A stretch of DNA of 64,000 bases, taken from contig JACQXA010000004.1 of the NCBI GenBank assembly GCA_016208975.1, positions 681,015 through 745,014 of the forward strand. Direction: 5' to 3'. The notes below the pieces were generated by a model, which made no database searches, had not been told where the DNA came from, and saw only the letters and a list, made by a program, of their open reading frames with translations. The translations under genes were made by a program, and so were the position numbers. Positions 3,664-38,407 of this stretch are shown piece after piece; the stretch's first letter is position 1; every line of letters begins with the position of its first letter. The DNA is from Nitrospinota bacterium. GTDB taxonomy: Bacteria > Nitrospinota_A > UBA7883 > JACRLM01.

Positions 3664-3878
3664 GCCCAAAGAATATAAAAAGCCGGGCGGCTTGGGGCGG
3701 CCCGAGAAAACCAATGAGAACCCTTACACGCTGGGGCCGATTCTATAGGCCCGGCGCCATTAAGTCAACGGCGCGGGAATCCTCATCCCGCGCGGGATCC
3801 ACCACCTGAAACTTTGCGGCCTTGCCCGCATGACGGCCCTGTGATAAGAATTTTGGTAAACAACCACGGTTTTTTCAA

Positions 3879-4844
3879 ATGGCCACCTCCGGTAATAGCG
3901 GCGACAAAAAACCATTCGAAGTCCCGCCACCCAGTATAACCTTCGCGGGAATTATCGAATCCGCCCCGGATTTCGTTATCGCCTACATCCTGCTGGTGTT
4001 CTGGATTACCCCCATGGCGGTGTCGCCTCATCTGTCGCCTGTCCGGGTGGAGGCCATAATCACGCTGGAGTTTTTCGCCATCCTCTCCGGCTGGTTCATG
4101 AGTTTCGCATTCATGCTTTTCAATTCTCCGGTTCTTCGATATATCGTCACCGGAATGCTGGCTTACGTTTTTGTTATCGGATTCGGCTCGGATTTCGCGC
4201 GGTTGAGCGGCGAGGCGTGGCCCATCCTTTCATTGCTTGGGCTGATGATAAACAGGGCCACCGCCGCCCTGGCCACAAGGGAGGAGGCCCGGGGAGCGTT
4301 CCTGTTCGCCTGGTCGATCCTTCATTTTTTAATGATGATGGGCGCGTTCATGATACAGGCGCCGTTTCCAATCCCCGATTTGGGGCTGACACCGGAGGCG
4401 GTGAAGGAAATGGCGCTGGTAAATCCGCCGCTGACGGCCCATGCGGCCGAGAGCATGGCCCATCCGGATAAATACATGGCATGGACGTTCTTATATTTCG
4501 CCATATCCGGCGCCGTAACCCTGTTTTACCTTGGCGGATTGAAGGAGCGAGTAGAGACTCACATGGGCGATCCCGCCAGGAACGTCTCCACGGACGGGGA
4601 AAAGCTGTGGACTTTCGGCCAGCAACTGGCGGCGGTGGTGATATTGACGATAGCCTTGATCTGGATGTTCGATCCGTTAAGCCAGCCTCGAAAAGCATCC
4701 AGGTCCGAAGAGGCTCCATGGCGCGCAGAGGAAGCCTTAAAGCTTCATCAAGACAACCTGGAAAGGATCGGGAAGGAATCCGCCACACGTGAACGACGCG
4801 CCTTGGAAAAAGCCCAACGCAATAGACAGAGACTTGGTTATTAA
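3879..4844 (+). CDS. Hypothetical polytopic membrane protein with charged C-terminal tail
   Basis: Multiple hydrophobic helices in translation; no family recognised. Confidence 0.55.
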   Translation: MATSGNSGDKKPFEVPPPSITFAGIIESAPDFVIAYILLVFWITPMAVSPHLSPVRVEAIITLEFFAILSGWFMSFAFMLFNSPVLRYIVTGMLAYVFVIGFGSDFARLSGEAWPILSLLGLMINRATAALATREEARGAFLFAWSILHFLMMMGAFMIQAPFPIPDLGLTPEAVKEMALVNPPLTAHAAESMAHPDKYMAWTFLYFAISGAVTLFYLGGLKERVETHMGDPARNVSTDGEKLWTFGQQLAAVVILTIALIWMFDPLSQPRKASRSEEAPWRAEEALKLHQDNLERIGKESATRERRALEKAQRNRQRLGY

Positions 4845-5055: not shown

Positions 5056-5132
<77 letters not shown>

Positions 5133-5495: not shown

Positions 5496-5680
5496 AGTTT
5501 GGATTCTCGTGACGGTGTTAATCTCGGGCCCTCGCGGCTGGTTTTAGTTGTACAAAAGCGTGAATCCCCAATCGGCATTTAAAAAGGCATTAGCGCTCAC
5601 GCCGAAGTTTAAGGGGACGGCCGCGGTGATTCGGGCTGTTTTTCGCCGTGTTTGTCAATTCAAGAACAGGAGCATTTTCG

Positions 5681-6718
5681 ATGAGAAATTTTCGCTTTGC
5701 GGCGGTATTGATCGCTCTTCTCACGGTAGCCTTGGTTCCCGGCGCAAGCCGCGCCGAGAAACGCGCCTTTGACATGACCATAGAGGATACGAAAATAACC
5801 CTGGTGGAACAGCAGGGGTTCCACACCTTTGCGTTCAATGGACAGGTGCCCGGCCCGCTTTTCCATCTGAAGGAGGGGGACGATGTGTCCGTGAACGTGC
5901 ACAACCTCACAGCCCTTCCGCACACCATCCATTGGCACGGCTTGATCATGAAGAACAACTGGAAGAACGACGGCGTGCCGGGAGTGTCCCAGAACGCCAT
6001 CGAGCCGGGTAAATCCTTCACGTACAAGTTCGTGGCGGAGCCGTCCGGCACCATGTGGTATCACTGCCACGTCAACGTTAACGAGCATGTGGTGATGCGC
6101 GGCATGTGGGGCCCCTTCATCATAGATCCCAAGAAGCCCACCGAGTTGGAGAAGAAAGTCACCAAGGATTACATCCTGATGCTTTCCGACTGGGATTCCA
6201 AATACGCCTTCAAGCCCGGCTATGGCGGCGTGCCGGGGGATGTATACGATTACTTCACCATCAACGGCCGGTCATTCCCCGACACTCAGCCCATCCGCGT
6301 TAAAAAAGGGGATGTCGTAAGGATACGCCTAGTGGGCGCCGGGGAATTCATACACGCAATCCATCCTCATGGACATACATTCAAGGTGGCTTTCAAGGAT
6401 GGCAGGCCGTTGCCCGCGCCATATGAGGCCGACACCCTGATTGTAGGCCCCGGGGAGCGCTACGACATCATAATGGAAGCGAACAATCCCGGCCTCTTCC
6501 CTGTGCACGATCACGTGGATTCCCACACCCTCAACGGCGCAAAACCGATGGGCGGGCTCATGACAGTCATCGAGTATGAGGGAGTATCGGCCAGCGCCGA
6601 CCCGGTCTATGCCTGGAAAGACAAGATCTTCACGCCGGACTTCTATTATGAGGAGTCGCTGAAAAAAGGGCATGGCATGTTCGGCAATTCCTCGATGAAA
6701 GGCCAGGCCATCCAGTGA
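5681..6718 (+). CDS. ncgA: Two-domain multicopper oxidase (NcgA-like), secreted
   Basis: Signal peptide MRNFRFAAVLIALLTVALVPGASRA; copper motifs HWHG, HCHVNVNEHVVM (type-1 site in domain 1), HPHGH, HDH; SD aggag 8 nt before ATG. Confidence 0.85.
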   Translation: MRNFRFAAVLIALLTVALVPGASRAEKRAFDMTIEDTKITLVEQQGFHTFAFNGQVPGPLFHLKEGDDVSVNVHNLTALPHTIHWHGLIMKNNWKNDGVPGVSQNAIEPGKSFTYKFVAEPSGTMWYHCHVNVNEHVVMRGMWGPFIIDPKKPTELEKKVTKDYILMLSDWDSKYAFKPGYGGVPGDVYDYFTINGRSFPDTQPIRVKKGDVVRIRLVGAGEFIHAIHPHGHTFKVAFKDGRPLPAPYEADTLIVGPGERYDIIMEANNPGLFPVHDHVDSHTLNGAKPMGGLMTVIEYEGVSASADPVYAWKDKIFTPDFYYEESLKKGHGMFGNSSMKGQAIQ

Positions 6719-6729
6719 AAACAGGGGGA

Positions 6730-7422
6730 ATGATGGGATTCGCCAAAGTGGCGGCGATCGCCGCTACCACTGTCCTGCTAGGCGGTGTCGCCCATGCGGA
6801 AAGCGGCGAAGATATCCTCAAGAAGGACTGCTCGGGCTGTCACGCCCTTTCAAAGCCCGCCAGCTTCACAGTGGAGAGGGTCGTCAACCGAAAAGGGCCG
6901 GACCTTTATTACGCAGGGGACAAGTTCAACAAGCCGTGGCTTGTTAAATGGCTCCAGAATCCCGGGCGGATTCGCCCGGCCGGAGAATTCTATTTCAATC
7001 ATGTGAAGGCCACGTCCGAAGTGGACACCGTGGATGAAAAGTCCATTCCGTCTCATCCCGGCATGGGGAATGCGGAGGCCGTGGCCGTGGCGGACGCGCT
7101 TTCCGCTCTTTCGGAGCCCGGGCTTGTTGAAAAGGGGGGCTTCCTCAACGAAGAAGTCAACATGACCCTGGCCGGAATGTTTTTCGGAAAGCTTAGGGGC
7201 TGTTCGGCCTGCCACATGGGCAAGCCCGGCGCCGGAGGCAAATCGGGCCCCGAGTTATACACCGCCGCCGACCGGCTTAAGCCGGATTACATATTGGCTT
7301 ACATAAAGGACCCGCAGAAAATTGACCGCTATGTATGGATGCCAAAGCAGGAAATGAGCCCGGCGGACACGCAGAAGCTGGCGGGCTACATTCTCAGGCT
7401 TTCCGCCGGGGAGGCGAAATGA
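6730..7422 (+). CDS. ncgB: Diheme c-type cytochrome (NcgB-like)
   Basis: Signal peptide plus two CxxCH motifs (CSGCH, CSACH); starts 12 nt after the oxidase stop. Confidence 0.8.
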   Translation: MMGFAKVAAIAATTVLLGGVAHAESGEDILKKDCSGCHALSKPASFTVERVVNRKGPDLYYAGDKFNKPWLVKWLQNPGRIRPAGEFYFNHVKATSEVDTVDEKSIPSHPGMGNAEAVAVADALSALSEPGLVEKGGFLNEEVNMTLAGMFFGKLRGCSACHMGKPGAGGKSGPELYTAADRLKPDYILAYIKDPQKIDRYVWMPKQEMSPADTQKLAGYILRLSAGEAK

Positions 7423-7805
7423 CGCAGGGCAGAAAAGGGGTTTGGGGGATGTCCTGCGTAGCGGCTGTGTTCACCGCGGCCCTTGTGGCTCTGGCCTGGC
7501 CGGCTTCCGCGGCGACCAAGAGCGAAACGCTGTACAACGTCTATTGCGTCCAATGCCACGGGGTGACGCGCAACGGCAAAGGGATAAACAGCCCCGCCAT
7601 GGCTATCCAGCCGAGGGATCACACCGACGCCAAGGGAATGAGCGATATCCCTGACAGTCAACTGTTCAAGGCTATCAAGGAAGGAGGGATGGCGGTGAAT
7701 AAATCGTCACTCATGCCCGCATGGGGAGACGTGATGACAGACGAGGAAGTGAATGGGCTTGTCGCGTATCTGCGGCAGGTATGCAAATGTGGACCAACTA
7801 AATAA
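7419..7805 (+). CDS. ncgC: Monoheme c-type cytochrome (NcgC-like)
   Basis: One CxxCH (CVQCH), signal peptide; ATG overlaps upstream stop (ATGA at 7419-7422). Confidence 0.75.
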   Translation: MTQGRKGVWGMSCVAAVFTAALVALAWPASAATKSETLYNVYCVQCHGVTRNGKGINSPAMAIQPRDHTDAKGMSDIPDSQLFKAIKEGGMAVNKSSLMPAWGDVMTDEEVNGLVAYLRQVCKCGPTK

Positions 7806-7818
7806 GGGGAGTATTTTA

Positions 7819-8760
7819 ATGTCTTCGACCAAGTATCTAGGGGTTTTTCTGGGAGGGTTGATTGCGGCCTCCGTGGCGCTTTTCGCGCCGCAGGCTCAGG
7901 CCAAGGTGGTGAAAGTTACCTTCCACGCCACAGAAGTGGACTTGCCTATTGACAACAAGGGCACGCTGTACAAAACATGGACCTTCGACGGAAAGGTTCC
8001 AGGCCCGGTCGTCCGCGTGACCGAGGGGGACACTGTGGAGTTCACCCTGGTCAACGACAAGGCTAACAAGGTGTCCCACTCCATGGATTTCCACGCCGCC
8101 CGCACTAACGTGGTGACTGATTTCGCCTCCATAAAGCCCGGCGAATCCAAAAGCTACACTTTCACCGCTGATTACCCCGGCGTATTCTTCTATCATTGCG
8201 GATCCGACCCGATGATCCAGCATGTGGCCCGCGGCATGTTCGGCGTGATCATCGTCGATCCCAAGGACGCCAAGGCGTTGCCCAAGGCCGACAGGGAGTA
8301 TGTGCTGGTACAGTCGGAACTGTACAACAACCCCGAGGACGTGAACACCATGATGCAGGGAAAGTGGAACAACGTGGTGTTCAACGGCGGCATATTTAAG
8401 TACGACCCCGTGCATGACCCCAACGCCACCAGGTTCCTGGCCGCCAAGCCCGGCGAAAGGGTTCGCATATATTTTGTTAACGCCGGTCCCAACGAGTTCT
8501 CCGCGTTCCACCCCATCGCCGGAATATGGGACAAGGTGTACGCCGGCGGCAACCCCAAAAACGTATCCACCGGCATGCAGACTTTCGTTGTCGGGCCGGG
8601 GGACGGCGCGATCTTCGACCTGATATCTCCGGTTGAGGGCGGCAACGCCATAGTCACCCACTCGCTTAAATCGGCTCTTACCGGCTCAATAGCGGTGGTG
8701 CTGTTTTCTAAGGACGCCGACCCGAAGGCCGGCAAGGGTGAGCAGATTTTGGTCCGCTAG
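7819..8760 (+). CDS. nirK: Copper-containing nitrite reductase NirK-like protein
   Basis: Signal peptide; HSMDFHAA and YHC-x7-H-x4-M (FFYHCGSDPMIQHVARGMFG) matching NirK type-1/type-2 copper ligand blocks; SD aggggag before ATG. Confidence 0.8.
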   Translation: MSSTKYLGVFLGGLIAASVALFAPQAQAKVVKVTFHATEVDLPIDNKGTLYKTWTFDGKVPGPVVRVTEGDTVEFTLVNDKANKVSHSMDFHAARTNVVTDFASIKPGESKSYTFTADYPGVFFYHCGSDPMIQHVARGMFGVIIVDPKDAKALPKADREYVLVQSELYNNPEDVNTMMQGKWNNVVFNGGIFKYDPVHDPNATRFLAAKPGERVRIYFVNAGPNEFSAFHPIAGIWDKVYAGGNPKNVSTGMQTFVVGPGDGAIFDLISPVEGGNAIVTHSLKSALTGSIAVVLFSKDADPKAGKGEQILVR

Positions 8761-8774
8761 CAATTCCCCGTTGT

Positions 8775-8818
8775 GGCGCGGCTCCGGCTTTAACAGGAGC
8801 CGCGCCGCTCATTTATTC
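8775..8818 (+). terminator. Rho-independent terminator after nirK
   Basis: 11 bp perfect stem ggcgcggctcc / ggagccgcgcc followed by a T-rich tract. Confidence 0.55.
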
Positions 8819-8882
8819 GATATCTCTTTAGTGAGATAAACTTGGCGTTATGTACGGAATCAAAATGTCGGAGGATTTGAGT

Positions 8883-9146
8883 ATGGCAAGCCAAACCGTA
8901 ATGCGTGTTGTAATGATCGCTATGGCCGCCACCATGGTTGTTACCCACTTCGGGTCTCGCGCCCAGGCCGATGATGGTCACAAACACGCCGGAGCCACGG
9001 CCGTGGCAAAGAAAAAATATTATTGCACGATGGATCCGCAGGTCGTCTCGGACAAGCCGGGTAACTGCCCTGTTTGCGGCATGTATCTTGTGGAGATGAA
9101 AGAACCGGGGGCGCAAGAGGATAAAAAAAAAGTCCGGCCGCAGTAA
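8883..9146 (+). CDS. Exported heavy-metal-binding-domain protein; probably the N-terminal part of a frameshifted cusB
   Basis: Signal peptide then YYCTMDPQV...CPVCGM motif; stops 5 nt before the adaptor ORF just after an A9 run. Confidence 0.6.
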   Translation: MASQTVMRVVMIAMAATMVVTHFGSRAQADDGHKHAGATAVAKKKYYCTMDPQVVSDKPGNCPVCGMYLVEMKEPGAQEDKKKVRPQ

Positions 9147-9151
9147 GCTCC

Positions 9152-10306
9152 GTGGCCAGGAGCCTATGGGTATGCCCCATGCATCCGAACGTGAAGCAGG
9201 AGGGCAAGGGTAGTTGCCCCATTTGCGGGATGAACCTTGTTGAGAAGAAACCGGCGTCCGCTGGCAAGACGCCCGGCGCCACTGTGGACGCGGGCGCCCT
9301 TCAGCGCCTGGGGGTGAGGCTGGCCACGGCGCAGATGACCCGTCTTGAAAGAAAGATCAAGACCTACGGAATAGCCACCATGGACGAAACATCCATCGTC
9401 ACGGTAAATCCTAAAGTGGACGGCTGGATAAAAAGGCTCAACGCCAACACCGTGGGCAAGAAAATAAGGTCAGGGGATGTACTTTACGAGATATATTCGC
9501 CGGACCTTGTCCAGCGCCAGCGTGAATATATCGAGTTGATGCTCCGGCGCGACCAGCTCTCCGAAAGCATGAAGGATAACATCACGGGTCAAAACGCCGA
9601 GGTGCTGGCAAGCCTGGCGCGGGAACGCTGGCGCGCCAGGGAAAAACTGCTCCTTGCGGATATGGATGAGGAGACGTTAAAGCGGATCGAAGAGAAAAAG
9701 CGCCCCGTGGAGTTCACTCCCGTCCGCGCCCGCCGGGGCGGGGTGGTTACCGCCGTCACGGCGCGGGAGGGCGCCTACGTCACCCCCATGAGCCCGATAG
9801 TCACAATCGTGGATCTGTCCAGCGTATGGGTGGAGGTGCTTCTTTATCGCGACCAGCTCGAATGGGCGCGGGACGGGGCCGAGGCCACGGCCAGCCTGCC
9901 CGGCTCTGGAAAGCCGGTGGCCCAGGGCAAGCTTAGGTTCGTAAATCCCCTGATGGATCCCGCAAGCCAAACCCTGCGCGCAAGGCTGGAAGTTAACGGC
10001 GCCGCAACCGGCTTTACGCCAGGGATGAATGTGGATGTGCGCATAACGGCCGAATCGCGAGTGGCGCTTTGCGTTCCCAGGCCGGCGGTGATCCGGGACG
10101 GGCGCGGAGCGCGGGTTATGGTATCGAGAGGTAATGGGCTGTTCGCGCCGGTGCAAGTCAGAACGGGGGCCACCGACGGGGAAAACATGGAGATACTGGA
10201 GGGCTTGGCCGACGGGGATAGAGTGGCCGTCAACGGCCAGTTTCTGCTGGACTCCGCCGCCTCAATGAACGAGGCCGCCGAGAGGATGGGGCATCCGCAC
10301 AACTGA
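9152..10306 (+). CDS. cusB: CusB-type RND efflux membrane fusion protein with N-terminal metal-binding motif
   Basis: GTG start; VCPMHP...CPICGM motif then HlyD-like adaptor; no signal peptide of its own. Confidence 0.85.
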   Translation: MARSLWVCPMHPNVKQEGKGSCPICGMNLVEKKPASAGKTPGATVDAGALQRLGVRLATAQMTRLERKIKTYGIATMDETSIVTVNPKVDGWIKRLNANTVGKKIRSGDVLYEIYSPDLVQRQREYIELMLRRDQLSESMKDNITGQNAEVLASLARERWRAREKLLLADMDEETLKRIEEKKRPVEFTPVRARRGGVVTAVTAREGAYVTPMSPIVTIVDLSSVWVEVLLYRDQLEWARDGAEATASLPGSGKPVAQGKLRFVNPLMDPASQTLRARLEVNGAATGFTPGMNVDVRITAESRVALCVPRPAVIRDGRGARVMVSRGNGLFAPVQVRTGATDGENMEILEGLADGDRVAVNGQFLLDSAASMNEAAERMGHPHN

Positions 10307-10366
10307 AGTATGCGGAAAAAGCGTCCTGTAGTTTTCCGCCGTTTTAACCTCCACCGGTAAAATACG

Positions 10367-13300
10367 ATGATCGAAAAAGTAATAGCCTGGTCGCTGAGGA
10401 ACAGGCCGCTGGTCCTTCTGGGATCGCTTCTGCTGGCGGCGTGGGGCTGGCATTCTTCCCGCCACATGGCGTTGGACGCCATACCTGACCTTTCCGACAC
10501 ACAGGTGATCGTCAAAACCAGCTTCCCCGGCCAAGCCCCCCAGATAGTGGAGGATCAGGTCACCTATCCCCTGGCCACCGCCCTGCTTTCGGCGCCAAGG
10601 TCGGTGGCGGTCCGGGGTTTTTCCATGTTCGGCGAGTCGAACATCTACATAATCTTCGAGGATGGCGTCGACCCCTATTGGGCCAGGGCAAGGGTGAGCG
10701 AATATCTTGGCCAGCTTGCCGGCAGGCTACCGGCCGGGGTGACGCCCTCCTTGGGGCCGGACGCCTCAGGCGTGGGATGGATACTGGAATACGCCATCGT
10801 GGACAGGAACGGCTCCCACAACCCCGATGAGCTTCGGGCCATCCAGGATTTTTATCTGAAGTTCGAGTTGCAAAGTCTTCCGGGGGTGGCGGAGGTGGCC
10901 ACTGTTGGAGGCATGGCGCGGCAGTTCCAGGTTGAAATGGACCCGGACAGGATGACCGCCGCAGGGGTGACGTTGGAAAGCGTGGAAATGGCCATACGGA
11001 ACGCCAACGTTTCAGGCGGCGGCTCTGTCACCGAAATGAGCGGGGCCGAATACATGATCCGCTCCCACGGCCACCTTAAAACATTGGATGATTTCGGGCT
11101 TATATCACTGGGCATAAGCGACTCCGGCTCCCCTATCCTTTTAAAGGACATAGCCAATATACAGACCGGCCCTGAAACGAGGCGTGGCGTGGCGGACCTT
11201 GACGGCGAGGGAGAGGCTACCGGAGGTATAGTGATAATGCGGCCTGGCCAGAACGCCCTGGATATCATCAGCCGTGTCAAGGCTCGGCTTGAGGAGTTGA
11301 AATCCGGCCTGCCGCCGGGGGTGGAGATCGTGATCACCTACGACCGCTCCGGCCTGATCAACAGGGCCATTGACAACCTCACCGGCAAACTGCTGGAAGA
11401 GTCACTGGCGGTGGCGGCCGTGTGCCTGCTGTTTCTTTTCCATCTGCGCTCGTCTCTCGTGGCGGTGGTTACCCTTCCCCTGGGAATTCTTGCCGCCATC
11501 GGCGTGATGCGCCAGCAAGGGGCCCCGGCGGACATCATGTCCCTCGGCGGGATAGCCATCGCCATCGGCGCCATGGTGGACGCCGCAGTGGTGATGATAG
11601 AGAACATGCACAAGAGCATGGAGAAGGCCGCGCCCGGAGAGGACCGATGGGAGATAGTTTACAGAAGCTCGGTTGAAGTGGGGCCAGCGCTTTTTTTCTC
11701 CCTGCTCGTGATAACGGTTTCCTTCCTGCCCGTGTTCACGCTTACGGGCCAGGAGGGAAAGCTGTTCACTCCGCTGGCTTTCACCAAGACTTACGCCATG
11801 GCCGCCAGCGCCGCGCTGGCGATAACGCTCACGCCGGTCCTTATGGGCTATTTTGTCCGGGGCAGGATAGCGCCTGAGTCCGCCAATCCTCTAAACCGCT
11901 TTTTCCAGGCGCTGTACAGGCCAGCTTTGCTTACGTCCCTGAGGCATAAGGGGCGCACCATGGCGCTGGCAATGGCGCTCACCATATCGGCCTTGTGGCC
12001 GGCGGCCAGACTCGGTAGCGAGTTTATGCCTTCGTTGTACGAAGGGGATCTGCTCTACATGCCCACAACCCTTCCGGGCGTGTCGGTGGACGAGGCGGCC
12101 AGGATCACACAAATCACCGACAGGATCATCAAGACCATGCCGGAGGTGGAGCGGGTGTTCGGCAAGGCGGGCAGGGCGGAAACCGCCACGGATCCCGCGC
12201 CTCTTTCCATGCTGGAAACCACCATACTCTTAAAGCCCCAGAGCCAATGGCCCGCGGGCGAAAGCATAGACGACCTTGTGCGCAAGCTGGACGCGGCCGT
12301 TTCCCTCCCCGGCCTTATAAACTCCTGGGGATATCCCATTCGCACGAGGATTGACATGCTCTCCACGGGGATTAAGACTCCCCTGGGGGTGAAAATAACC
12401 GGGCCGGACTCCCAAGGAGTGGCGGATTTGGCCAGCGAGATCGAAATGGTCATCAAGAATGTGAGGGGAACGCGGAACGTGTTCGCCGACCGCGCCGCCA
12501 GCGGCAGGTACATAGACGTGGTTATGGACCGGGCCGAGTCGGCCAGATACGGTGTCAGCGCCGCGGACATTAAGAGGCTTATGGAAAACGCCATAGGCGG
12601 GGAGACCATAGGCTATGTGATAGACGGGCGGCAACGGTTCTCCATCGCCATGAGGGTTCCGCGCTCGTTCCGCGAATCCCCGGAGGCAATAGGCGCCACG
12701 CGCATCTCTACGCCGATGGGAGCGCAGATCCCTCTGAGCCACGTGGCCAGGGTTGAAATCTCCAACGGCCCGTCAGAGATCAAAAGCGAGAACGGCAGGC
12801 TGGCGGGCTATGTGTACATAGACATGGCGGGAAGGGATTTGGGCGGTTACGCCGGGGAGGCCAGGCTGGCCGTGACCTCGAAGATAAAACTCAAGCCCGG
12901 TTACGCTATCACGTGGTCAGGCCAATACGAGAGCATGGAGCGGGCGCGGGAGCGGCTCTATCTGGCGGTCCCTCTGACGCTGGCGCTGGTGTTCATCCTC
13001 CTTTACATGTATTTCCGAAGCGCCGGGAAGGTGGCGCTTGTGCTGTTAAGTCTTCCCTTCGCGCTGTCCGGCGGGCTGTGGCTGGTGTACCTGCTGGGAT
13101 ACAACCTTTCCGTGGCAGTGGCAGTGGGCTTTATCGCGCTGGCGGGGGTTGCGGCGGAGTTCGGCGTGGTGATGATTCTTTATATAGACAACGCGTTCAG
13201 GGAAGGAAGCGGTGGCGATGTAACTTCGGCGGTGATCCAGGGTGCGCTGGCCAGGATACGGCCCAAGATGATGACCGTTACGGTGATAGTGGCAGGCCTT

Positions 13301-13453
13301 CTTCCCGTAATGTTCTCGAGCGGGGCAGGGTCCGACGTGATGAAGCGGGTGGCGGCTCCGCTGGTGGGGGGCATGCTCACCGCGCCGCTACTGTCGTTGT
13401 TCGTCATTCCTGCGCTCTACGCCATATTCATCCGGGGAAAGGGCGATAAGTAG
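10367..13453 (+). CDS. cusA: CusA/CzcA-family heavy-metal efflux RND transporter
   Basis: 1028 aa, 12-TM RND topology, N-terminus MIEKVIAWSLRNRPLVLL... typical of the HME-RND family. Confidence 0.9.
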   Translation: MIEKVIAWSLRNRPLVLLGSLLLAAWGWHSSRHMALDAIPDLSDTQVIVKTSFPGQAPQIVEDQVTYPLATALLSAPRSVAVRGFSMFGESNIYIIFEDGVDPYWARARVSEYLGQLAGRLPAGVTPSLGPDASGVGWILEYAIVDRNGSHNPDELRAIQDFYLKFELQSLPGVAEVATVGGMARQFQVEMDPDRMTAAGVTLESVEMAIRNANVSGGGSVTEMSGAEYMIRSHGHLKTLDDFGLISLGISDSGSPILLKDIANIQTGPETRRGVADLDGEGEATGGIVIMRPGQNALDIISRVKARLEELKSGLPPGVEIVITYDRSGLINRAIDNLTGKLLEESLAVAAVCLLFLFHLRSSLVAVVTLPLGILAAIGVMRQQGAPADIMSLGGIAIAIGAMVDAAVVMIENMHKSMEKAAPGEDRWEIVYRSSVEVGPALFFSLLVITVSFLPVFTLTGQEGKLFTPLAFTKTYAMAASAALAITLTPVLMGYFVRGRIAPESANPLNRFFQALYRPALLTSLRHKGRTMALAMALTISALWPAARLGSEFMPSLYEGDLLYMPTTLPGVSVDEAARITQITDRIIKTMPEVERVFGKAGRAETATDPAPLSMLETTILLKPQSQWPAGESIDDLVRKLDAAVSLPGLINSWGYPIRTRIDMLSTGIKTPLGVKITGPDSQGVADLASEIEMVIKNVRGTRNVFADRAASGRYIDVVMDRAESARYGVSAADIKRLMENAIGGETIGYVIDGRQRFSIAMRVPRSFRESPEAIGATRISTPMGAQIPLSHVARVEISNGPSEIKSENGRLAGYVYIDMAGRDLGGYAGEARLAVTSKIKLKPGYAITWSGQYESMERARERLYLAVPLTLALVFILLYMYFRSAGKVALVLLSLPFALSGGLWLVYLLGYNLSVAVAVGFIALAGVAAEFGVVMILYIDNAFREGSGGDVTSAVIQGALARIRPKMMTVTVIVAGLLPVMFSSGAGSDVMKRVAAPLVGGMLTAPLLSLFVIPALYAIFIRGKGDK

Positions 13454-15966: not shown

Positions 15967-18900
15967 TCAGCCTTGGGCGTGATCCTTCCCGTCGTGGGTA
16001 AGCGACACCCCGTAAAACCGGGACATCCACGAGTCCAGCAGGGAATAAAGCGCGGGCACCACCACCAACGTAAGTATAGTGGCGAAACCCATCCCGAACA
16101 CTATGGCGTCGGCCATGGGACCCCAGAACTCCGTGGAGTCCGACCCCATGGCGAACTTCATCTTGTTAAAATCGAAGCTTATCCCCAGTGACATGGGAAC
16201 CACGCCAAGGATGGTGGTTATTGCGGTAAGCAGGACGGGCCGGAGCCTGGTGAGCCCGGCGGTGACGATGGCGTCGAACTTGGGCATCCCACGCTCACGG
16301 AGCTTTATGGTGTAGTCCAGCAACACTATGGCGTTGCACACCACCACCCCCGCCAGGCTCACTATGCCTATGCCGGTCATGATGATGCCGAAGGGGCTCA
16401 TGGTTACCAGAAGCCCGATGAGCACGCCGATTATGGACAGCACGACCGAGGTGAGGATTATAGAAGGGGTGACTATGGAGTTAAACTCCAGTATCAGCAC
16501 CAGGGCGATGAGGAACACTGCGGTGAAAAAGGCGTTGGTCAGGAAGGTTTCCGCCTCCTTTTGCTCCTTCTCCTCGCCTGTATAGGATATCTGCACGCCC
16601 TCGGGCAGTTTCACCTTTTCGGCTACGGTTTTTTTCACCGTCTCCAACGTGGCGGCGCTGTTATACCCGGCCGCCACCTGTGCCCCCACGGAAATAACCC
16701 GCTTCTGGTCCAAGTGCATGATGTCCGAATATCCCGATGACGTGTCTATCTTCGTAACGGCGCTCAAGGGTATTTCCTTGCCCTCGTGGCGGATGAAATA
16801 ACTTTTCAGCTTTTCAAACCCGTCGCGCCTGTCCTCGGTGTAACGGACGCGGATGTCGTACTCGTCTTTCCCTTCCCTGTATATGGATGCCTTGGAGCCG
16901 TAGATTGCGGCGCGCACTCCCCCGGCCACATCGGTGGTGTTCAACCCATAGCTTGCGGCCTTCTCCCGGTCTATCTCTATCCTCAGCTCCGGCATGCCCG
17001 CCGAGTAATTGTTCTCCGCGTCCACCACGCCAGGAACCTTGGAGATGACATCCTCCAGCGTATGGCTCACGTCGGCAAGAACGGTGTAATCGTCCCCAAA
17101 CACCTCTATGTTGATGGGGGCCCCCACCGGCGGGCCCATCTGCTCGGCGCTCACCCGCACCCTGGCCCCTACAATCTCCCCGGTGGCGGCGGCGCGGATC
17201 TCGTCTTGTATGAGTTTGGTGGAATGTTCCCGTTCTTCCCGGGGTATGAAATCCACTATCACCCGGGCCTTGTTCCCCGGCCCGGATTCGCCCATCCCGG
17301 AAAAATCGAACACCCCGGCGGATACGCCCACGTTGGCCACGTATGTCTGCGTCTCTTTATACTTTTTTACTATCGCTTCTATTTTCCGTGTAAGCGCGTC
17401 CGTGGCGTCCACCGTAAAGCCTGTGGGGGCCTCCAGCTCCACAAACGTTTTTCTTGGGTCCGCCGATGGGAAAAACTCCACCCCGTGTCCAGCCACGGAA
17501 TAAACGGCGATGATCATCACCAACGCCCCAAACGACGCCGCCAGGGTCTTGCCACGGTGGTTTAACGCCCATATAAGCGCACGCCGGTATTGGCGCATCA
17601 GCGGCCCCATTTCCTCCTCGGAGCGCTGGGCGTAACTTTTGCTCCTGCTTTTAACGCTAAGCATCGTGGCGCACATGGTGGGATTTATCACCAGCGCCAC
17701 GAAAAGCGACGCCAGCAGGGCGATGATAACTGTGTACGGGATGTACACCATGAACTCGCCCATTATCCCCGGCCAGAAAATGATGGGCAGGAACCCGCAT
17801 ATGGTTGTCATGGTGGAGGTGATGACGGGCACTATCACCTCCCTGGTCCCTTCCAGCGCGGCGGTCTTCGCGTCCGCCCCCTCTTCGGCGTGGCGGAATA
17901 TGTTCTCCACCACCACTATGGCGTCGTCCACCAGCCTGCCCAGCGCGAGGATTATGGAGAAGAGCACCACCATGTTCAGCGTTATGCCGGCCGCTGACAA
18001 CACTCCGAACATGATCAATAGGGAAAACGGGATCGCCAGCGACACGAATACCGCCGCCCGCAGGCCAAGCGAGAAGAAAAGGGTGATAACCACCAGCGTC
18101 ACGCCGGTCACCACGTGGTTGCCCAAGTCGCTTAAGAACGTCTTTGTGTCCTGGCTTTGGTCGGCGGTGTAAACCACCTTGGTAGAGCGGGGAAACGAGC
18201 GCTCCTCCTGAGCCACCAGGGCCTTCACCGCATCGGCCACTTCTATTATGTTCTCGCCGCTCCTCTTCACAACGGATATGCTGATGCACTCCTGCCCGTT
18301 AAGCCGGGCCATTGTGCTTGTTTCCTTGAACCCGAACTTCACCTCCGCCAGGTCCCGCACATATACCGGCTTGTTGTCCACGGACCGGATAACGATATCC
18401 CGTATGATCCGGAAATCCTCAAACTCCCCCGGCAGGCGCACCAGGTACTTGTAGTCACCCAGGGTTATGGATCCGCCGGGGATGGTCACGTTCTCCCTGG
18501 CGATGGCGTCTTCCACGTCTTGCATGGCCAGCCCGTAATAGCGTAGCCGCGCCGGATCCACGTTAACCTGCACCTCGCGCTCCAGCCCCCCGGCCACCCG
18601 CGCCTCCAGCACACCGGGTATCTGCTCTATCTTGTCCTTTAGGTCATCCGCCACTTTCTTGAGCCGGGGCAGGCCATACCCTCCGGACATGTTCACGTAC
18701 AGTATCGGGATGTTGGAGAAACTTATCTCCGTCACCACCGGCTCCTCGGCTTCGGAAGGGATCTCCGAACGGGCCGAGCTCGTCTTATCGCGCACTTTTT
18801 GCAAGGCGGTGTCTATATCCACCGACGGCTCAAACTCCACCGTTATCGCAGAGATGCTCTCCTTGGATGAGGAGCGCATCTCTTTTATGTTCTCTATGCT

Positions 18901-19119
18901 CTTCAGCTCTTTTTCGATTTTCCGGGTCACCAGCGATTCCATGTCCGCCGGGGAAACGCCCGGATACACCGTGGTGACGATAACGAAGGGTATGGTGATG
19001 TCCGGCGAAGATTCCCTGGGCAGGGTGAAAAACGAATTTGTTCCAATGACGGCGATAATAAGAACCATGGCGTAAACCGCCATGTAGTTCTTGATGGAAA
19101 ACTCTGTGATTCTGGTCAC
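15967..19119 (-). CDS. RND multidrug efflux transporter (AcrB/HAE1-like)
   Basis: 1050 aa 12-TM RND permease. Confidence 0.9.
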   Translation of the reverse strand: MTRITEFSIKNYMAVYAMVLIIAVIGTNSFFTLPRESSPDITIPFVIVTTVYPGVSPADMESLVTRKIEKELKSIENIKEMRSSSKESISAITVEFEPSVDIDTALQKVRDKTSSARSEIPSEAEEPVVTEISFSNIPILYVNMSGGYGLPRLKKVADDLKDKIEQIPGVLEARVAGGLEREVQVNVDPARLRYYGLAMQDVEDAIARENVTIPGGSITLGDYKYLVRLPGEFEDFRIIRDIVIRSVDNKPVYVRDLAEVKFGFKETSTMARLNGQECISISVVKRSGENIIEVADAVKALVAQEERSFPRSTKVVYTADQSQDTKTFLSDLGNHVVTGVTLVVITLFFSLGLRAAVFVSLAIPFSLLIMFGVLSAAGITLNMVVLFSIILALGRLVDDAIVVVENIFRHAEEGADAKTAALEGTREVIVPVITSTMTTICGFLPIIFWPGIMGEFMVYIPYTVIIALLASLFVALVINPTMCATMLSVKSRSKSYAQRSEEEMGPLMRQYRRALIWALNHRGKTLAASFGALVMIIAVYSVAGHGVEFFPSADPRKTFVELEAPTGFTVDATDALTRKIEAIVKKYKETQTYVANVGVSAGVFDFSGMGESGPGNKARVIVDFIPREEREHSTKLIQDEIRAAATGEIVGARVRVSAEQMGPPVGAPINIEVFGDDYTVLADVSHTLEDVISKVPGVVDAENNYSAGMPELRIEIDREKAASYGLNTTDVAGGVRAAIYGSKASIYREGKDEYDIRVRYTEDRRDGFEKLKSYFIRHEGKEIPLSAVTKIDTSSGYSDIMHLDQKRVISVGAQVAAGYNSAATLETVKKTVAEKVKLPEGVQISYTGEEKEQKEAETFLTNAFFTAVFLIALVLILEFNSIVTPSIILTSVVLSIIGVLIGLLVTMSPFGIIMTGIGIVSLAGVVVCNAIVLLDYTIKLRERGMPKFDAIVTAGLTRLRPVLLTAITTILGVVPMSLGISFDFNKMKFAMGSDSTEFWGPMADAIVFGMGFATILTLVVVPALYSLLDSWMSRFYGVSLTHDGKDHAQG

Positions 19120-19122
19120 GGT

Positions 19123-20175
19123 TTATTTCCCGGAAATCTCCACGCGGTCGCCGTCCACCAAACTCCGCTGGCCAGATATAACCAGCTCATCCCCGGCCGC
19201 AAGACCGGAGCGCACCAGCGCCAACTCGCCGGAGACATCCTCAATCACAACCCGCCTCTGCCGGGCCGTAACCCCCTTCTCCACCACATACACCGCATGG
19301 CCGTCGGCCAGTTCCACCACGGCGTTCTGCGGGATGATTATGGAATCCGGCCCCAGGCTACGCCCGAAAGTTACCTTGGCGCTCATGTCCGGCAATATCT
19401 TCATATCACCGTTATCCACGGTGACCTCGCAATCGAACACCCGCGTAACAGGGTTCACCGCCGGGGCGATGAAACTTATTTTCCCTTCAAACTCCTTGTC
19501 CGGGAAAGCGTCGAAAGTGACCTTCGCCTTTTTCCCTTCGGAAAAATCCACCATGGATTTTTCCGGCAACCCTACGGAGATTTTTATCGGGTTCACCGCC
19601 ACAAGCCTGGCCAAGGGCTGGCCCGGGGCCACTATGGCGCCCACCTCCACCTCGCGGTTGACCATGGCCCCGGACAGGGGAGCCTTGATGACATGTTTGG
19701 CGAGGTACGCGCTGGCCCCGGCAAGCCGGGCCTCCGCCGCGTCCTGGTTCAGCCTGGCCTGCTCCATCTGAAACTCGGAGACGCCCGCTTTGCGCTCTTC
19801 GAGCGCCTTAAGCTTCCTGTGCTCCAGCGCCGCAAGGTCCCTCGCCGCCTGGGCGGCGGCCACGTCCGCGGCGGCGGTGGAACCGTCCAGCCATAAAAGC
19901 GGCTGGCCCGCTTTCACTCTGGCGCCTTTCTCAAAACCCAGGCGCGCCACCCTTCCCCCGGCCTCGAACGCCAACACCACTTCTTTCCACGCCTTGGCCA
20001 CCCCATTGAGGGTGAGGTCCTGCCTGAACTCGCCCGGCTCGATCTTCGACACTTTGACTTTCACCGTTTTCTTCTCGGCGGCGTTCTGCTGTGGCGGCGC
20101 GGCGGAGCCGGAGCAGGAAACGGCCATGGCCGCCACAGTGAACAGGACAAGGCTAGTTTTGTTTTTTCGCATCAA
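19123..20175 (-). CDS. RND efflux membrane fusion protein (HlyD family), lipoprotein
   Basis: Lipobox AVSC, coiled-coil and beta-barrel adaptor segments; 3 nt before the RND gene. Confidence 0.85.
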   Translation of the reverse strand: MMRKNKTSLVLFTVAAMAVSCSGSAAPPQQNAAEKKTVKVKVSKIEPGEFRQDLTLNGVAKAWKEVVLAFEAGGRVARLGFEKGARVKAGQPLLWLDGSTAAADVAAAQAARDLAALEHRKLKALEERKAGVSEFQMEQARLNQDAAEARLAGASAYLAKHVIKAPLSGAMVNREVEVGAIVAPGQPLARLVAVNPIKISVGLPEKSMVDFSEGKKAKVTFDAFPDKEFEGKISFIAPAVNPVTRVFDCEVTVDNGDMKILPDMSAKVTFGRSLGPDSIIIPQNAVVELADGHAVYVVEKGVTARQRRVVIEDVSGELALVRSGLAAGDELVISGQRSLVDGDRVEISGK

Positions 20176-21496
20176 TCTTCTCCCCGGCGGCGGAAAGGCC
20201 CATGGCGCGGATCAGCCGCGCCCTGGCCACGGCGTGTCCATATAACGTCCGGCCATGGCTTACCTGCGCCATTGTCAAAGCCCCGTGCGCGTCCAACAGC
20301 TCCAGATGCGTCGCCATGCCCACGCGGCGCCTCTCGCTGACTATCCTGTAAGTCTCCCGGGCGTGCTCCACGTTTAGCGACTGGCTCTCCACAAGCTCTT
20401 TGGCCCGCGTAAATTCGTCGAAGGCGGATTTGGCTTCCATAACCGTAAGCCGCTCCGCCCGTTCCATCTCAAGCCTGGCTATCTCCCGCTCGGACAGCCT
20501 CTGGTTCACCCGCGAGGCGCGCTCGGCCCCGTCGAACAGGTTGAGTTCCACTTTCGCGCCCACGTTCCATTCGTTTCGCCAGCCGAAACTGCCGTCGCCA
20601 CGGAAATCGCTATTGGAGCTACGATAGGCCCCGAAAAGCTTGGCGGTGGGATATAGCTCGCTTTTGGCGGCCCGCGCTATATTCTCGGCGGCTTCGTGGC
20701 CGGCACGGGCCGCAAGCAACTCCGGGCGGAAGGCTCGGGCGCTTTCCAGAGCCTCTTCAAGGCTAGTCTCCAGCGGTTCGTAAACCAACTCTCCGTCAAC
20801 TTCCACCGGCTCCAGCGGATCCATGGACACGCTCTCCAAAAGGGCCGACAATGCCCTTGAATAATCGTTCTTCGCGCCTATCAGCGCCGCCCGCGCTTCC
20901 GCCAGGCTTGTGGCGAACCGCATGACATCGTAGCTTGTGGCCAGCCCAAGCGCCTCCCTGTCCCTTGCGTCGGCGTGATGCGCCCCGGCCCGCTCCACCG
21001 TATCCTCATAGGCGCTTATAACCTGTCTGGCCAGAAGAACGGCGAACGCTTTGCTTTTCACGTCCGCCACGGCGTTGTTGAGCGCGGCTGTAACGCCGTT
21101 CTCCGCCATAGCCTCCAGCCGCTTGGCCGCGTCATACCCGGCGCCCACGGCCCCGGAGTAAATCCACTGGTTCAGCGACGCGTCCAGCGAATAGTTTTCG
21201 TCCGGCTGGAAACTCAGGCTCTGGCCCGGCGATATCTCATACTTGGGCACATTCCCCTCATGGCGATAGGTGGCCGAAAAATCGACATCCGGCAGTACCA
21301 GCCCGAAAGCCTCGCTCCGGCGGCTTGTGGCGTGGGCCAGCCGCGCTTTTGCTATTTGCGTGTCCACGCTCCGCTCCCCGGCCATGGACACAAAATCGTC
21401 CACCGTAAGTTTTTTAACGGCCGTCTCCCCGGCGGTGGCCATGGGCGCGCCCGCCATAAAAAATATTGCCGTTACTAAAAAGGTTGCTCTGGTCAC
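20153..21496 (-). CDS. TolC-family outer membrane efflux protein
   Basis: 447 aa, signal peptide, TolC-like repeated coiled-coil layout; overlaps adaptor start. Confidence 0.8.
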   Translation of the reverse strand: MTRATFLVTAIFFMAGAPMATAGETAVKKLTVDDFVSMAGERSVDTQIAKARLAHATSRRSEAFGLVLPDVDFSATYRHEGNVPKYEISPGQSLSFQPDENYSLDASLNQWIYSGAVGAGYDAAKRLEAMAENGVTAALNNAVADVKSKAFAVLLARQVISAYEDTVERAGAHHADARDREALGLATSYDVMRFATSLAEARAALIGAKNDYSRALSALLESVSMDPLEPVEVDGELVYEPLETSLEEALESARAFRPELLAARAGHEAAENIARAAKSELYPTAKLFGAYRSSNSDFRGDGSFGWRNEWNVGAKVELNLFDGAERASRVNQRLSEREIARLEMERAERLTVMEAKSAFDEFTRAKELVESQSLNVEHARETYRIVSERRRVGMATHLELLDAHGALTMAQVSHGRTLYGHAVARARLIRAMGLSAAGEKIDAKKQN

Positions 21497-22125
21497 CTCG
21501 CCTCCGCCTGATTGAAAAACGACCCCACCATGGCCTTTATCTGTTTGAGGTATTCTTTCATGTCCACCCTGGCGCCCATGCTCATAAGCTGGAGAAGCCC
21601 TACATATAAATTGATCAGCGCAATAGACAAAGTCTTCGCGTCCACCCCGGGCGAAAGTTCGCCGCTATTCTGCGCCTGCCGGATAATCTTTGCGAAGGCG
21701 TTTATATGGCTGTCGGTGTTCGACTTGCACGCCTTGAGGATGGCCGGGTTCCGCAACGCCTCGGCCCAAAGCTCCACCTCCAGCCGCACGTCCTGTTTCG
21801 GCATGGAACTAAGCTTTTCAAAAAATATGTCGGCAAGATTGGTAAGCGCCCCGTATGCGCCGCCATCGGAGTTTTCCGACACGTTTTTTATGATGGCGAG
21901 GTTTTCGACCCTTTCCCGTTCCGGCATTGCGGCGATTATCGCCTGTTTGCCGGGGAAATAACGGTACACCGCGCCGGGGCTCATGCCAGCCCGGGCGCAG
22001 ATGTCCTGCATGGTGGTTTTGTGGAATCCGTTACGGGAGAAGCAGGTGCAGGCGGCGTCCACAATCTGCCGTTTTCTGGCTTCCATGTGTTCCACATTCA
22101 TCCTGGGGGCCATTGGATTCTCCAA
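21493..22125 (-). CDS. TetR-family transcriptional regulator
   Basis: N-terminal HTH (KTTMQDICARAGMSPGAVYRYFPGKQAI); 4-nt overlap with tolC-like gene. Confidence 0.8.
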   Translation of the reverse strand: MENPMAPRMNVEHMEARKRQIVDAACTCFSRNGFHKTTMQDICARAGMSPGAVYRYFPGKQAIIAAMPERERVENLAIIKNVSENSDGGAYGALTNLADIFFEKLSSMPKQDVRLEVELWAEALRNPAILKACKSNTDSHINAFAKIIRQAQNSGELSPGVDAKTLSIALINLYVGLLQLMSMGARVDMKEYLKQIKAMVGSFFNQAEAR

Positions 22126-34359: not shown

Positions 34360-34584
34360 GCGCTCTCCCTTTGTAACATCCAGGGACGTATGTGTCCAAA
34401 AACCACCAACCTTTAACGAATATAACCTTAAATCAGGCGAAATTCAAACCTGTTTCTTCCAAAGGGTTTGAAAATCCGCAAATTTCATTTTTGCGGCGGC
34501 GTGATTTTTTTTAGCCCAATAAGCGGCATACGCAATTGCCAGCCGGGGTTTCCCCGGAAAGTTAATATGATTTTGAGTGGGATA

Positions 34585-34626: not shown

Positions 34627-34703
<77 letters not shown>

Positions 34704-37555: not shown

Positions 37556-38407
37556 TTATTGGGCCGGTTGGGATTCGGCGGCTTTTTTCGCGGCCTCCTC
37601 CATCTTTTTCTTTTCGGCCTGGATCTCCCGCCGGGATCCGCGTTTTCTTTCCACTTTTTCTTCTTCGGCTTTCACCGGTTGGGCTGGAGCGGTTCCAGGA
37701 GCTATCGCCTGCCCCGGAGCCCCGGCCTGTTTGCGCGGCCTGGGGACAACCTTGTGGTAAATACCCTCTTCCGGCGTTTCGTCTTCACCAGGGGCTGGAA
37801 CCCGCTCGTTATACGCCCAAACGATGCGATAGTTATAACCGGCTATTTCTTCCGGATGCAGGTTTATCTCATATTCAACTACGGCGGTTTCACCCGCCTC
37901 CAGCCGGTCCGGTTTTTTCTTCCCGCCGTCAAATTCGATGGCCAGGTCCGCCGCCCTTCGGGCTTCCACATGGAAAAGTATAAGGTCCAGCCGCAAACCA
38001 TCCACGGGATATTTGAAGTTGTTCTTCAGGGTGGCCCGGAGCAGGGCAAGGCCGGTCATGGTGTTTTCTATTTCCAGTTCCCCCACCATCTCCACGCCCT
38101 TGTCTTTTTCAGGCGCTTTTTCTTCGGCCTGCCCGTTCTCCCCATTGGCCACCCCCTCGCCGTTTTGAGCGGAGCCATTTGCAGGCGCTTCATTAACCGG
38201 GGCTTCCTCCTCCAGCGGAGGGCGCACATATTTCTCTGGAGCTACTACTTCTTTTTTTTCTTTAACCTTGGGTGGGGCGGAGTATTGGCTGTCGCCGTAA
38301 TGGGCCTGGCCTTTCTCATCCACCCACTTGTAGATACCCTGGGCGAGGGCCGGAGTGGGAAAACTAAGCGCGGCCGCCAACCCGGCGGCGATAACCTTTT
38401 GTTTCAT
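37556..38407 (-). CDS. DUF4124-domain secreted protein with charged low-complexity tail
   Basis: Signal peptide then GIYKWVDEKGQAHYGD motif; 6 nt upstream of radA. Confidence 0.7.
   Translation of the reverse strand: MKQKVIAAGLAAALSFPTPALAQGIYKWVDEKGQAHYGDSQYSAPPKVKEKKEVVAPEKYVRPPLEEEAPVNEAPANGSAQNGEGVANGENGQAEEKAPEKDKGVEMVGELEIENTMTGLALLRATLKNNFKYPVDGLRLDLILFHVEARRAADLAIEFDGGKKKPDRLEAGETAVVEYEINLHPEEIAGYNYRIVWAYNERVPAPGEDETPEEGIYHKVVPRPRKQAGAPGQAIAPGTAPAQPVKAEEEKVERKRGSRREIQAEKKKMEEAAKKAAESQPAQ

Follow-up and report, generated by a model that had tools for sequence, protein, structure and literature searches.

A conserved run of nine adenines as a putative recoding site between a small secreted metal-binding protein and a CusB-type efflux adaptor in Nitrospinota

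The window analysed here is a 64,000-nucleotide stretch of a Nitrospinota bacterium (contig JACQXA010000004.1 of assembly GCA_016208975.1), and its copper operon contains two open reading frames, ORF1 for a small secreted metal-binding protein and ORF2 for a CusB-type efflux adaptor, whose frames meet at a run of nine adenines (A9). From the arrangement of the sequence, we lean towards the reading that A9 is a programmed recoding site, from which two proteins would be made off one start codon and one signal peptide. Under standard decoding, translation would stop at 9144-9146 and yield an 87-aa secreted protein with one metal-binding domain of the HMBD family, plausibly a periplasmic Cu(I) chaperone by analogy with the service of CusF to CusB. 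A fraction of expression events would enter the −1 frame at A9, either by RNA polymerase gaining one A (or dropping two) on the nine-base run, or by the ribosome slipping by −1 on A_AAA_AAA. The shifted product would be composed of signal peptide, HMBD 1, linker, HMBD 2, and adaptor, and would be the sole form reaching the periplasm to serve the pump CusA. The slip site would then set the ratio of the short HMBD protein to the adaptor. We see the balance as even on the full arrangement, in which a free HMBD metallochaperone and the same domain fused to a CusB-type adaptor would both be sent to the periplasm at a set ratio through a conserved A9 in a cellular, non-mobile operon.

Frame architecture and protein identities at the A9 run

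The features of the locus are as follows (window coordinates).

8883-9146, + strand: ORF1, the zero-frame product; 87 aa, secreted small HMBD protein, public record MBI4666122.1
8883-8969, + strand: predicted Sec signal peptide, aa 1-29, with ...SRAQA before and DD after the cleavage site; from sequence reading and hydropathy (maximum KD15 2.22 at residue 6)
9015-9095, + strand: HMBD 1, YYCTMDPQVVSDKPGNCPVCGMYLVEM; Pfam PF19335, 44.4 bits, residues 45-71
9120-9135, + strand: conserved 16-nt block GATAAAAAAAAAGTCC; same letters in a second Nitrospinae lineage, in a linker otherwise poorly conserved
9122-9124, + strand: TAA of the −1 frame, shutting the ORF2 frame directly 5' of the run
9123-9131, + strand: A9, the putative slip site, containing the in-phase heptamer A_AAA_AAA at 9125-9131
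9144-9146, + strand: zero-frame stop TAA, four codons past the run, terminating the short product
9125-10306, + strand: open −1 frame with linker, HMBD 2, and CusB-type adaptor core, no signal peptide
9152-10306, + strand: ORF2 as called; 384 aa, GTG start
9167-9247, + strand: HMBD 2, WVCPMHPNVKQEGKGSCPICGMNLVEK, of the adaptor type; Pfam PF19335, 46.6 bits
9344-10030, + strand: membrane-fusion core (barrel-sandwich / beta-barrel); Pfam HlyD_D23, TIGR01730, PDB CusB
10367-13453, + strand: heavy-metal pump of CusA/CzcA type in the resistance-nodulation-division (RND) family, intact; TIGR00914 1184.6 bits, cut-off 701

ORF1 has a Shine-Dalgarno sequence (GGAGG, 8870-8874) located 8 nt ahead of its ATG. 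The frame of ORF2 is −1 relative to that of ORF1; it is open from 9125 and closed by the TAA at 9122-9124, and hence can be entered only at the run. Addition of one A gives a 474-aa fusion with the junction ...EDKKKSPAAVSSVARSLWVCPMHP.... Re-derivation of coordinates and frames bore out the layout that the earlier note had read from this DNA, namely two ORFs at 8883-9146 and 9152-10306, nine adenines at 9123-9131 with the −1 frame open back to 9125, and a fusion upon one extra A, which a virtual insertion reproduced. Its assignment of one metal-binding motif to each ORF agrees with a PF19335 domain in each, and that of an export signal to ORF1 only agrees with hydropathy (KD15 2.22 for ORF1 versus 0.51 for ORF2). 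The run has features expected of both slippage routes. The heptamer at 9125-9131 has the X_XXY_YYZ form of −1 programmed ribosomal frameshifting (PRF) sites and is in the phase of ORF1, and the whole run has the length of about nine bases expected of coding A/T runs for transcriptional slippage.

A9 is the longest homopolymer of the window. The next-longest ones are T8 at 34505-34512, T8 at 38252-38259, and A8 at 59322-59329. The first of these is outside the listed ORFs, ca. 115 nt upstream of tRNA-Pro (34627-34703). Both of the others (encoding KEKKE on the − strand and VKKR on the + strand, respectively) are in frame within long ORFs and cause no disruption.

Both HMBDs score well above the Pfam cut-off of 23.6 bits, and both ORFs carry the motif CxM[HD]P...CPxCGM. 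ORF2 matches HlyD_D23 at 6e-53 and TIGR01730 with 126.5 bits (cut-off 94.9), and the CusB structures 3h94/3ne5 in the PDB match residues 84-470 of the fusion with an E value of 9e-36. The adaptor does not pass the model of the E. coli CusB subfamily, NF007303 (149.7 bits versus a cut-off of 390), and is thus CusB-like but outside that subfamily. By Pfam, its N-terminal region is an HMBD with Cys, Met, and His residues; E. coli CusB has an N-terminal Met triad, which accepts Cu(I) from CusF. HMBD 2 matches the HMBDs of outgroup adaptors at 17-19 of 26 positions, and tandem HMBDs are present in 12 of the 120 homologues listed. The pump gene adjoins the adaptor. As for ORF1, a Pfam scan gives HMBD only and no CusF OB-fold; ORF1 is not a member of the CusF family, and a chaperone role would be one of analogy, not of membership.

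RND adaptors work in the periplasm. The complete homologues of this adaptor have an N-terminal hydrophobic signal or anchor ahead of the HMBD. The N-terminus of ORF1 is hydrophobic and ends in AQA followed by DD, a cleavage site read by eye from sequence and hydropathy; ORF2 alone has no hydrophobic N-terminus. A signal for periplasmic location is hence present in the trans-frame fusion of ORF1 and ORF2 and not in ORF2 by itself, and the predicted signal peptide of ORF1 is the sole export signal available to the adaptor. There is no usable Shine-Dalgarno sequence before either start candidate of ORF2 (GTG 9152 and ATG 9179). This absence counts for little, since cusA likewise has no clear Shine-Dalgarno sequence.

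Conservation of the run in a second Nitrospinae lineage

The nearest relative of ORF2 is encoded by another Nitrospinae metagenome-assembled genome (MAG), GCA_016235255.1, at a locus referred to as L003, which is also found in run SRR12113394. Its gene order is that of the window: multicopper oxidase, two cytochromes c, NirK-like multicopper oxidase, small HMBD ORF, adaptor, and CusA. The two loci compare as follows, with dS standing for synonymous divergence and dN/dS for the ratio of nonsynonymous to synonymous divergence.

NirK-like multicopper oxidase: protein identity 86%, dS 1.1, dN/dS 0.09
CusA: protein identity 75%, dS 1.4, dN/dS 0.14
Adaptor (ORF2): protein identity 56%, dS 1.8, dN/dS 0.19
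ORF1: protein identity 41%, dS saturated, dN/dS not computable

ORF2 is under purifying selection, with a dN/dS of 0.19 versus 0.14 for CusA. L003 carries the same 16-mer, i.e. GAT-A9-GTCC. Its adaptor frame is likewise −1 and is shut by a TAA overlapping GAT-AAA (3786-3788), and its zero-frame stop is located five codons past the run (after VPSPQ), compared with four codons in the window (after VRPQ). Alignment of the two virtual fusions spans 1458 columns at 60.6% nucleotide identity and contains four stretches of 16 nt or more that match exactly, three of which are in core adaptor motifs (YSPDLVQRQR, LASLARE, and VNGQFL). The fourth is the A9 block, 17 nt long when the virtual tenth A is counted, and the linker around it otherwise differs in both sequence and length. 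AAA accounts for just 35% of the Lys codons in both genomes.

The L003 adaptor frame has no ATG, GTG, or TTG from the run to the M of C-P-M-H-P. Its first in-frame start is ATG 3849, past the W-I-C-P of the HMBD. The four codons ahead of any L003 start are nevertheless kept as protein (TGG ATC TGT CCC versus TGG GTA TGC CCC), the Cys change being synonymous and the other a V/I change. As W-I-C-P is conserved and no start precedes it, translation must enter the L003 adaptor frame upstream of any start codon. Run and offset are thus conserved and the downstream ORF is under selection, a combination seen in these two lineages. The earlier note had suggested comparing orthologous loci and held that the same two-ORF arrangement there, together with independent reads of exactly nine A, would speak against a fusion. 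The arrangement is indeed found in L003, but it argues for recoding and not against a fusion, since the slippery run is identical and there is no alternative start. The same comparison is at odds with the recent pseudogenisation that the note had also considered, because the same A9 and −1 offset persist at saturated synonymous divergence and ORF2 has a dN/dS of 0.19.

Split ORF1 and ORF2 products are recorded on about six contigs of the window's lineage (lineage 1), per-run Logan assemblies among them, and on about four of the second lineage, about ten contigs together. Three DNA copies of lineage 1 were read (runs SRR12113402 and SRR12113404); they have 0 mismatches to the window and carry GAT-A9-GTCC. 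All six loci read across both lineages are A9. No fused in-frame protein (474/484 aa, corresponding to A10) was found among 5.8 billion protein clusters.

In the public annotation, ORF2 is MBI4666123.1, a protein of 375 aa starting from ATG 9179 and losing the W-V-C-P of the HMBD, and the L003 adaptor (GCA_016235255.1) is a protein of 355 aa starting at 3909, whose HMBD is wholly removed. ORF1 is labelled 'hypothetical protein', and the frameshift is flagged in neither record. Taken at face value, such truncated annotation would make the efflux system look broken, or give a wrong model of the end that binds metal.

Recoding and the alternative readings

Recoding is the simplest reading of the locus, since the adaptor needs the periplasm, ORF2 is under selection, CusA is intact, and ORF2 has no export signal. 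Among the causes listed in the earlier note, programmed frameshifting is the kind that we favour, as an exportable adaptor needs −1 entry at the A run; sequencing error and recent pseudogenisation from the same list are not supported, and phase variation stays in contention. Judged by the run and its surroundings, slippage of RNA polymerase would be favoured over −1 ribosomal frameshifting, since the run is exactly nine bases long and no stimulatory structure is conserved. Runs of nine A or T make bacterial RNA polymerase slip efficiently, and this length matches its 9-10 bp RNA-DNA hybrid (PMC5009743, PMC1088944).

Several observations weigh against recoding. An A9 or T9 in 64 kb is unexceptional, with a mean of 1.2 by dinucleotide shuffling and at least one occurrence in 60 of 100 shuffles; what goes beyond chance is that the run is placed exactly at the frame junction and kept in the orthologue. 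Folding of both loci (pseudoknots not searched) gave no −1 PRF stimulator common to the two lineages, a stimulator being defined as a structure 5-9 nt downstream or a Shine-Dalgarno-like sequence upstream. The window has a hairpin 5 nt past the run, which is weak (z −0.14), the L003 hairpin begins 27 nt past the run, and GAGG stands upstream in the window only, being absent in L003. Rfam has no match in the A9 region. The efficiency of slippage on A9 varies by organism (PMC1088944). The arrangement is seen in two lineages only, both from the run series SRR121133xx/SRR121134xx, and no third lineage came out of a profile search run exhaustively over 1.84 billion representatives, in which multi-HMBD repeat proteins dominated the matches to ORF1. 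Nor did a word-index search with the ORF1 alignment give a third lineage having the ...DKKKV..PQ tail. Scans of genome and metagenome contigs by means of the fused alignment picked up mainly the generic HMBD motif, gave distant relatives only (23-49% identity), and missed the source genomes; they are hence uninformative on close orthologues, and the protein collections may understate the number of lineages.

A conserved homopolymer is, moreover, equally expected of a phase-variable gene. In that case A9 would be one state of a switch at the DNA level, with A10 being ON (exported adaptor) and A9 being OFF; slippage during replication would toggle efflux in a part of the population, and the sampled populations would be OFF. 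We regard such a switch as unlikely. It would accord with a coding homopolymer that sits at a frame junction and is kept in two lineages, and slippage in replication and in transcription are indistinguishable from sequence alone (Baranov et al., PMC1088944). All copies on record are, however, in the A9 state, with six loci read and about ten contigs recorded; no run-length polymorphism was found among the six DNA copies, compared at the level of assemblies. The protein collection holds no fused protein of 474/484 aa, and if both species were OFF, their intact CusA would have no adaptor to work with. Contingency loci are found typically in pathogens adapted to a host, and we know of none in groundwater Nitrospinota.

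It is distinctly unlikely that the adaptor is dead, i.e. that an ancestral deletion or frameshift left ORF2 as a relic and the A run is simply the Lys-rich tail of a small gene. A relic would not be expected to remain open over 384 and 375 codons at a dS of ca. 1.8 with a dN/dS near that of CusA, nor to conserve the ligand residues of HMBD 2, including codons upstream of any L003 start. The A9 block is conserved in nucleotides even though the rest of its linker can vary freely, and CusA is intact and needs an adaptor. What a dead adaptor would explain is that ORF2 has neither a signal peptide nor a start with a usable Shine-Dalgarno sequence, and that public annotation gives two separate genes.

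Two ordinary genes, with ORF2 translated alone from GTG 9152 or by re-initiation and without a canonical export signal, make an improbable reading. The 5 nt from the ORF1 stop to GTG 9152 would allow translational coupling, and a small HMBD gene followed by an adaptor is the norm in the related operons described below. Against it, the first in-frame start of L003 drops the first Cys of the HMBD and none is present near the ORF1 stop, and ORF2 has no hydrophobic N-terminus although adaptors are periplasmic and their complete homologues have a signal or anchor. Least of all do we credit the sequencing or assembly error proposed in the earlier note, with a true run of A10 and a single ORF: homopolymers are error-prone on some platforms and the source contig is 2.2 Mb long, but identical A9 runs come from the independent per-run assemblies SRR12113402 and SRR12113404 of lineage 1, where all three DNA copies read have A9 and about six contigs have split products, as well as from SRR12113394 and a separate MAG of the second lineage, with split products on about ten contigs in all.

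Related operons and comparison with known systems

The genes upstream of ORF1 in the same conserved operon are as follows.

5648-6718, + strand: multicopper oxidase
6715-7422 and about 7419-7805, + strand: two c-type cytochromes
7819-8760, + strand: NirK-like two-domain multicopper oxidase

The last of these, a protein of 313 aa, has copies with 75-80% identity in many Betaproteobacteria (Thiobacillus etc.) and others. One source names it 'nitrite reductase (NO-forming)', a name that is insecure, since the NirK equivalog model gives the protein 198 bits where its cut-off is 296. The adaptor is 45-55% identical to those of the sister operons. We compared three sister lineages (L087, L092-95, and L096-98), and all three have the same order: multicopper oxidase, cytochrome c, cytochrome c, multicopper oxidase, small HMBD gene, adaptor, and CusA. 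In these operons, the small protein with signal peptide and HMBD has its own gene (82-99 aa), which is separated from the adaptor gene by a spacer of 65-103 nt. The sister adaptors are 438-483 aa long and have their own transmembrane anchor before one or two HMBDs. The longest A run close to the sister small genes' 3' end is A5. Among the lineages compared, A9 is found only alongside an adaptor without its own start and anchor.

As small proteins with signal peptide and HMBD are encoded by an independent gene at this position in the sister operons, the predicted zero-frame product of ORF1 is a normal, recurring type of protein for the position, and ORF1 may itself be a separate gene. What sets the Nitrospinae version apart in this comparison is the loss of the adaptor's own start and anchor. 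The earlier note's picture of one adaptor split in two fits the layout, which can be read as a split two-HMBD adaptor, but it is incomplete in view of the independent small genes. The HMBD of ORF1 is equidistant from those of the sister small genes and those of the two-HMBD adaptors (11-14 of 26 positions). Its cleavable-looking signal peptide resembles those of small HMBD proteins, and the fusion is colinear in alignment with the 483-aa two-HMBD adaptor of L087. ORF1 may have arisen from the separate small gene, or else from a two-HMBD adaptor whose first HMBD it would represent; the HMBD sequences do not decide between these origins. The arrangement appears to date from an adaptor losing its start and anchor, or from a two-HMBD adaptor gaining the shift. 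Two further candidates for anchorless adaptors, P0072 (422 aa) and P0095 (603 aa), turned out to be start-codon miscalls, as their frames (L087 1318-2769 and L091 1-300, respectively) are open upstream and encode a transmembrane anchor or signal peptide.

The sister spacers hold a GC-rich hairpin (L092 4796-4888; L096 4856-4958), which in L092 consists of GGGGGCGCGGGCCCCC and then TGCTGTTTG. It could be an attenuator that fixes how much chaperone is made per adaptor, as we propose for A9 in the Nitrospinae loci. Secreted proteins of small size (ca. 75-170 aa) bearing between one and three HMBDs abound in the protein collections, most of them without a name, and as many as seven HMBD repeats are present in some proteins; the HMBD profile of ORF1 matches 10,175 cluster representatives at E<=0.001. 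Many of the small proteins end Lys-rich (e.g. ...LVEKKKK), and such ends, if so encoded, would be A-rich in DNA. The locus offers a testable hypothesis for the role of these widespread proteins.

A tRNA-Met gene (5056-5132) is located just ahead of the copper operon (5648-13453). This neighbour, together with the 75-80% identity of the oxidase versus ca. 50% of the adaptor to Betaproteobacteria including Thiobacillus, suggests that the operon is a horizontally spread island inserted beside a tRNA gene. No gene for an outer-membrane factor is present in the copper operon. Elsewhere in the window, a second and complete RND efflux operon (15970-22125, − strand) is composed of a TetR regulator (21496-22125), an outer-membrane factor (20156-21496), an adaptor (19126-20175), and an AcrB-type pump (15970-19119).

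Two products arising through slippage on an A run or through −1 frameshifting are known from other genes, and the proposed mechanism belongs to that kind; a cusB-like gene with a homopolymer frameshift was not reported in the literature searched. To our knowledge, confirmed cases of recoding in non-mobile, non-viral bacterial genes are few, namely dnaX, prfB, copA, mxiE/spa, and a handful more. The window locus shares with Thermus dnaX and Shigella mxiE/spa13 a nine-base run in a cellular coding gene and two products, and with mxiE a long product made by slip and a short one by standard decoding, if recoding takes place. It differs from them in being a metal-efflux adaptor gene with a secreted metal-binding short product, and slippage is here a proposal. 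Thermus thermophilus dnaX slips on A9, and the longer product of Shigella mxiE requires slippage (PMC5009743, PMC1088944). The in-phase heptamer of Lys codons, the overlapping −1 frame, and the fusion protein resemble those of E. coli dnaX and of orfA-orfAB in the IS3 family (A_AAA_AAG). The E. coli dnaX and IS3 sites, however, have defined stimulators (a Shine-Dalgarno-like sequence upstream, a hairpin or pseudoknot downstream), and none is conserved at the window locus.

With respect to E. coli CusCFBA, the locus likewise places a small periplasmic metal-binding protein beside an adaptor of CusB type and a pump of CusA type. CusF of E. coli passes Cu(I) on to CusB at its N-terminus (PMC7558416). 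The proteins involved differ, as the HMBD of ORF1 is a zinc-ribbon-like motif of Cys, Met, and His whereas E. coli CusF is an OB-fold, and the N-terminal site of the window adaptor is an HMBD whereas that of E. coli CusB is a Met triad. Unlike CusCFBA, the window copper operon is without an outer-membrane factor gene. The sister operons of Thiobacillus and other Betaproteobacteria have separate genes, an anchored adaptor, and runs of at most A5, whereas the Nitrospinae loci have overlapping frames and A9.

The closest parallel in function is E. coli copA, in which −1 PRF gives CopA(Z), the N-terminal metal-binding domain and a proposed chaperone (Meydan et al. 2017, as cited in PMC7558416 and PMC5009743). 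If the window locus is recoded, both genes would make a transporter component and a small metal-binding-domain protein from one copper-export gene. The polarity is opposite, as the zero frame of copA encodes the long product and the shift truncates it, whereas the zero frame of the window locus encodes the short product and the shift would extend it. The slip site is CCCAAAG in copA and A9 in the window. The compartments also differ, with copA being cytoplasmic (P-type ATPase, ferredoxin-like metal-binding domain) and the window locus periplasmic (RND adaptor, HMBD). If true, the Nitrospinae locus would correspond, in the periplasm, to copA/CopA(Z) with the polarity turned round, and a second case in copper export would suggest that recoding recurrently fixes the chaperone-to-transporter stoichiometry in metal homeostasis.

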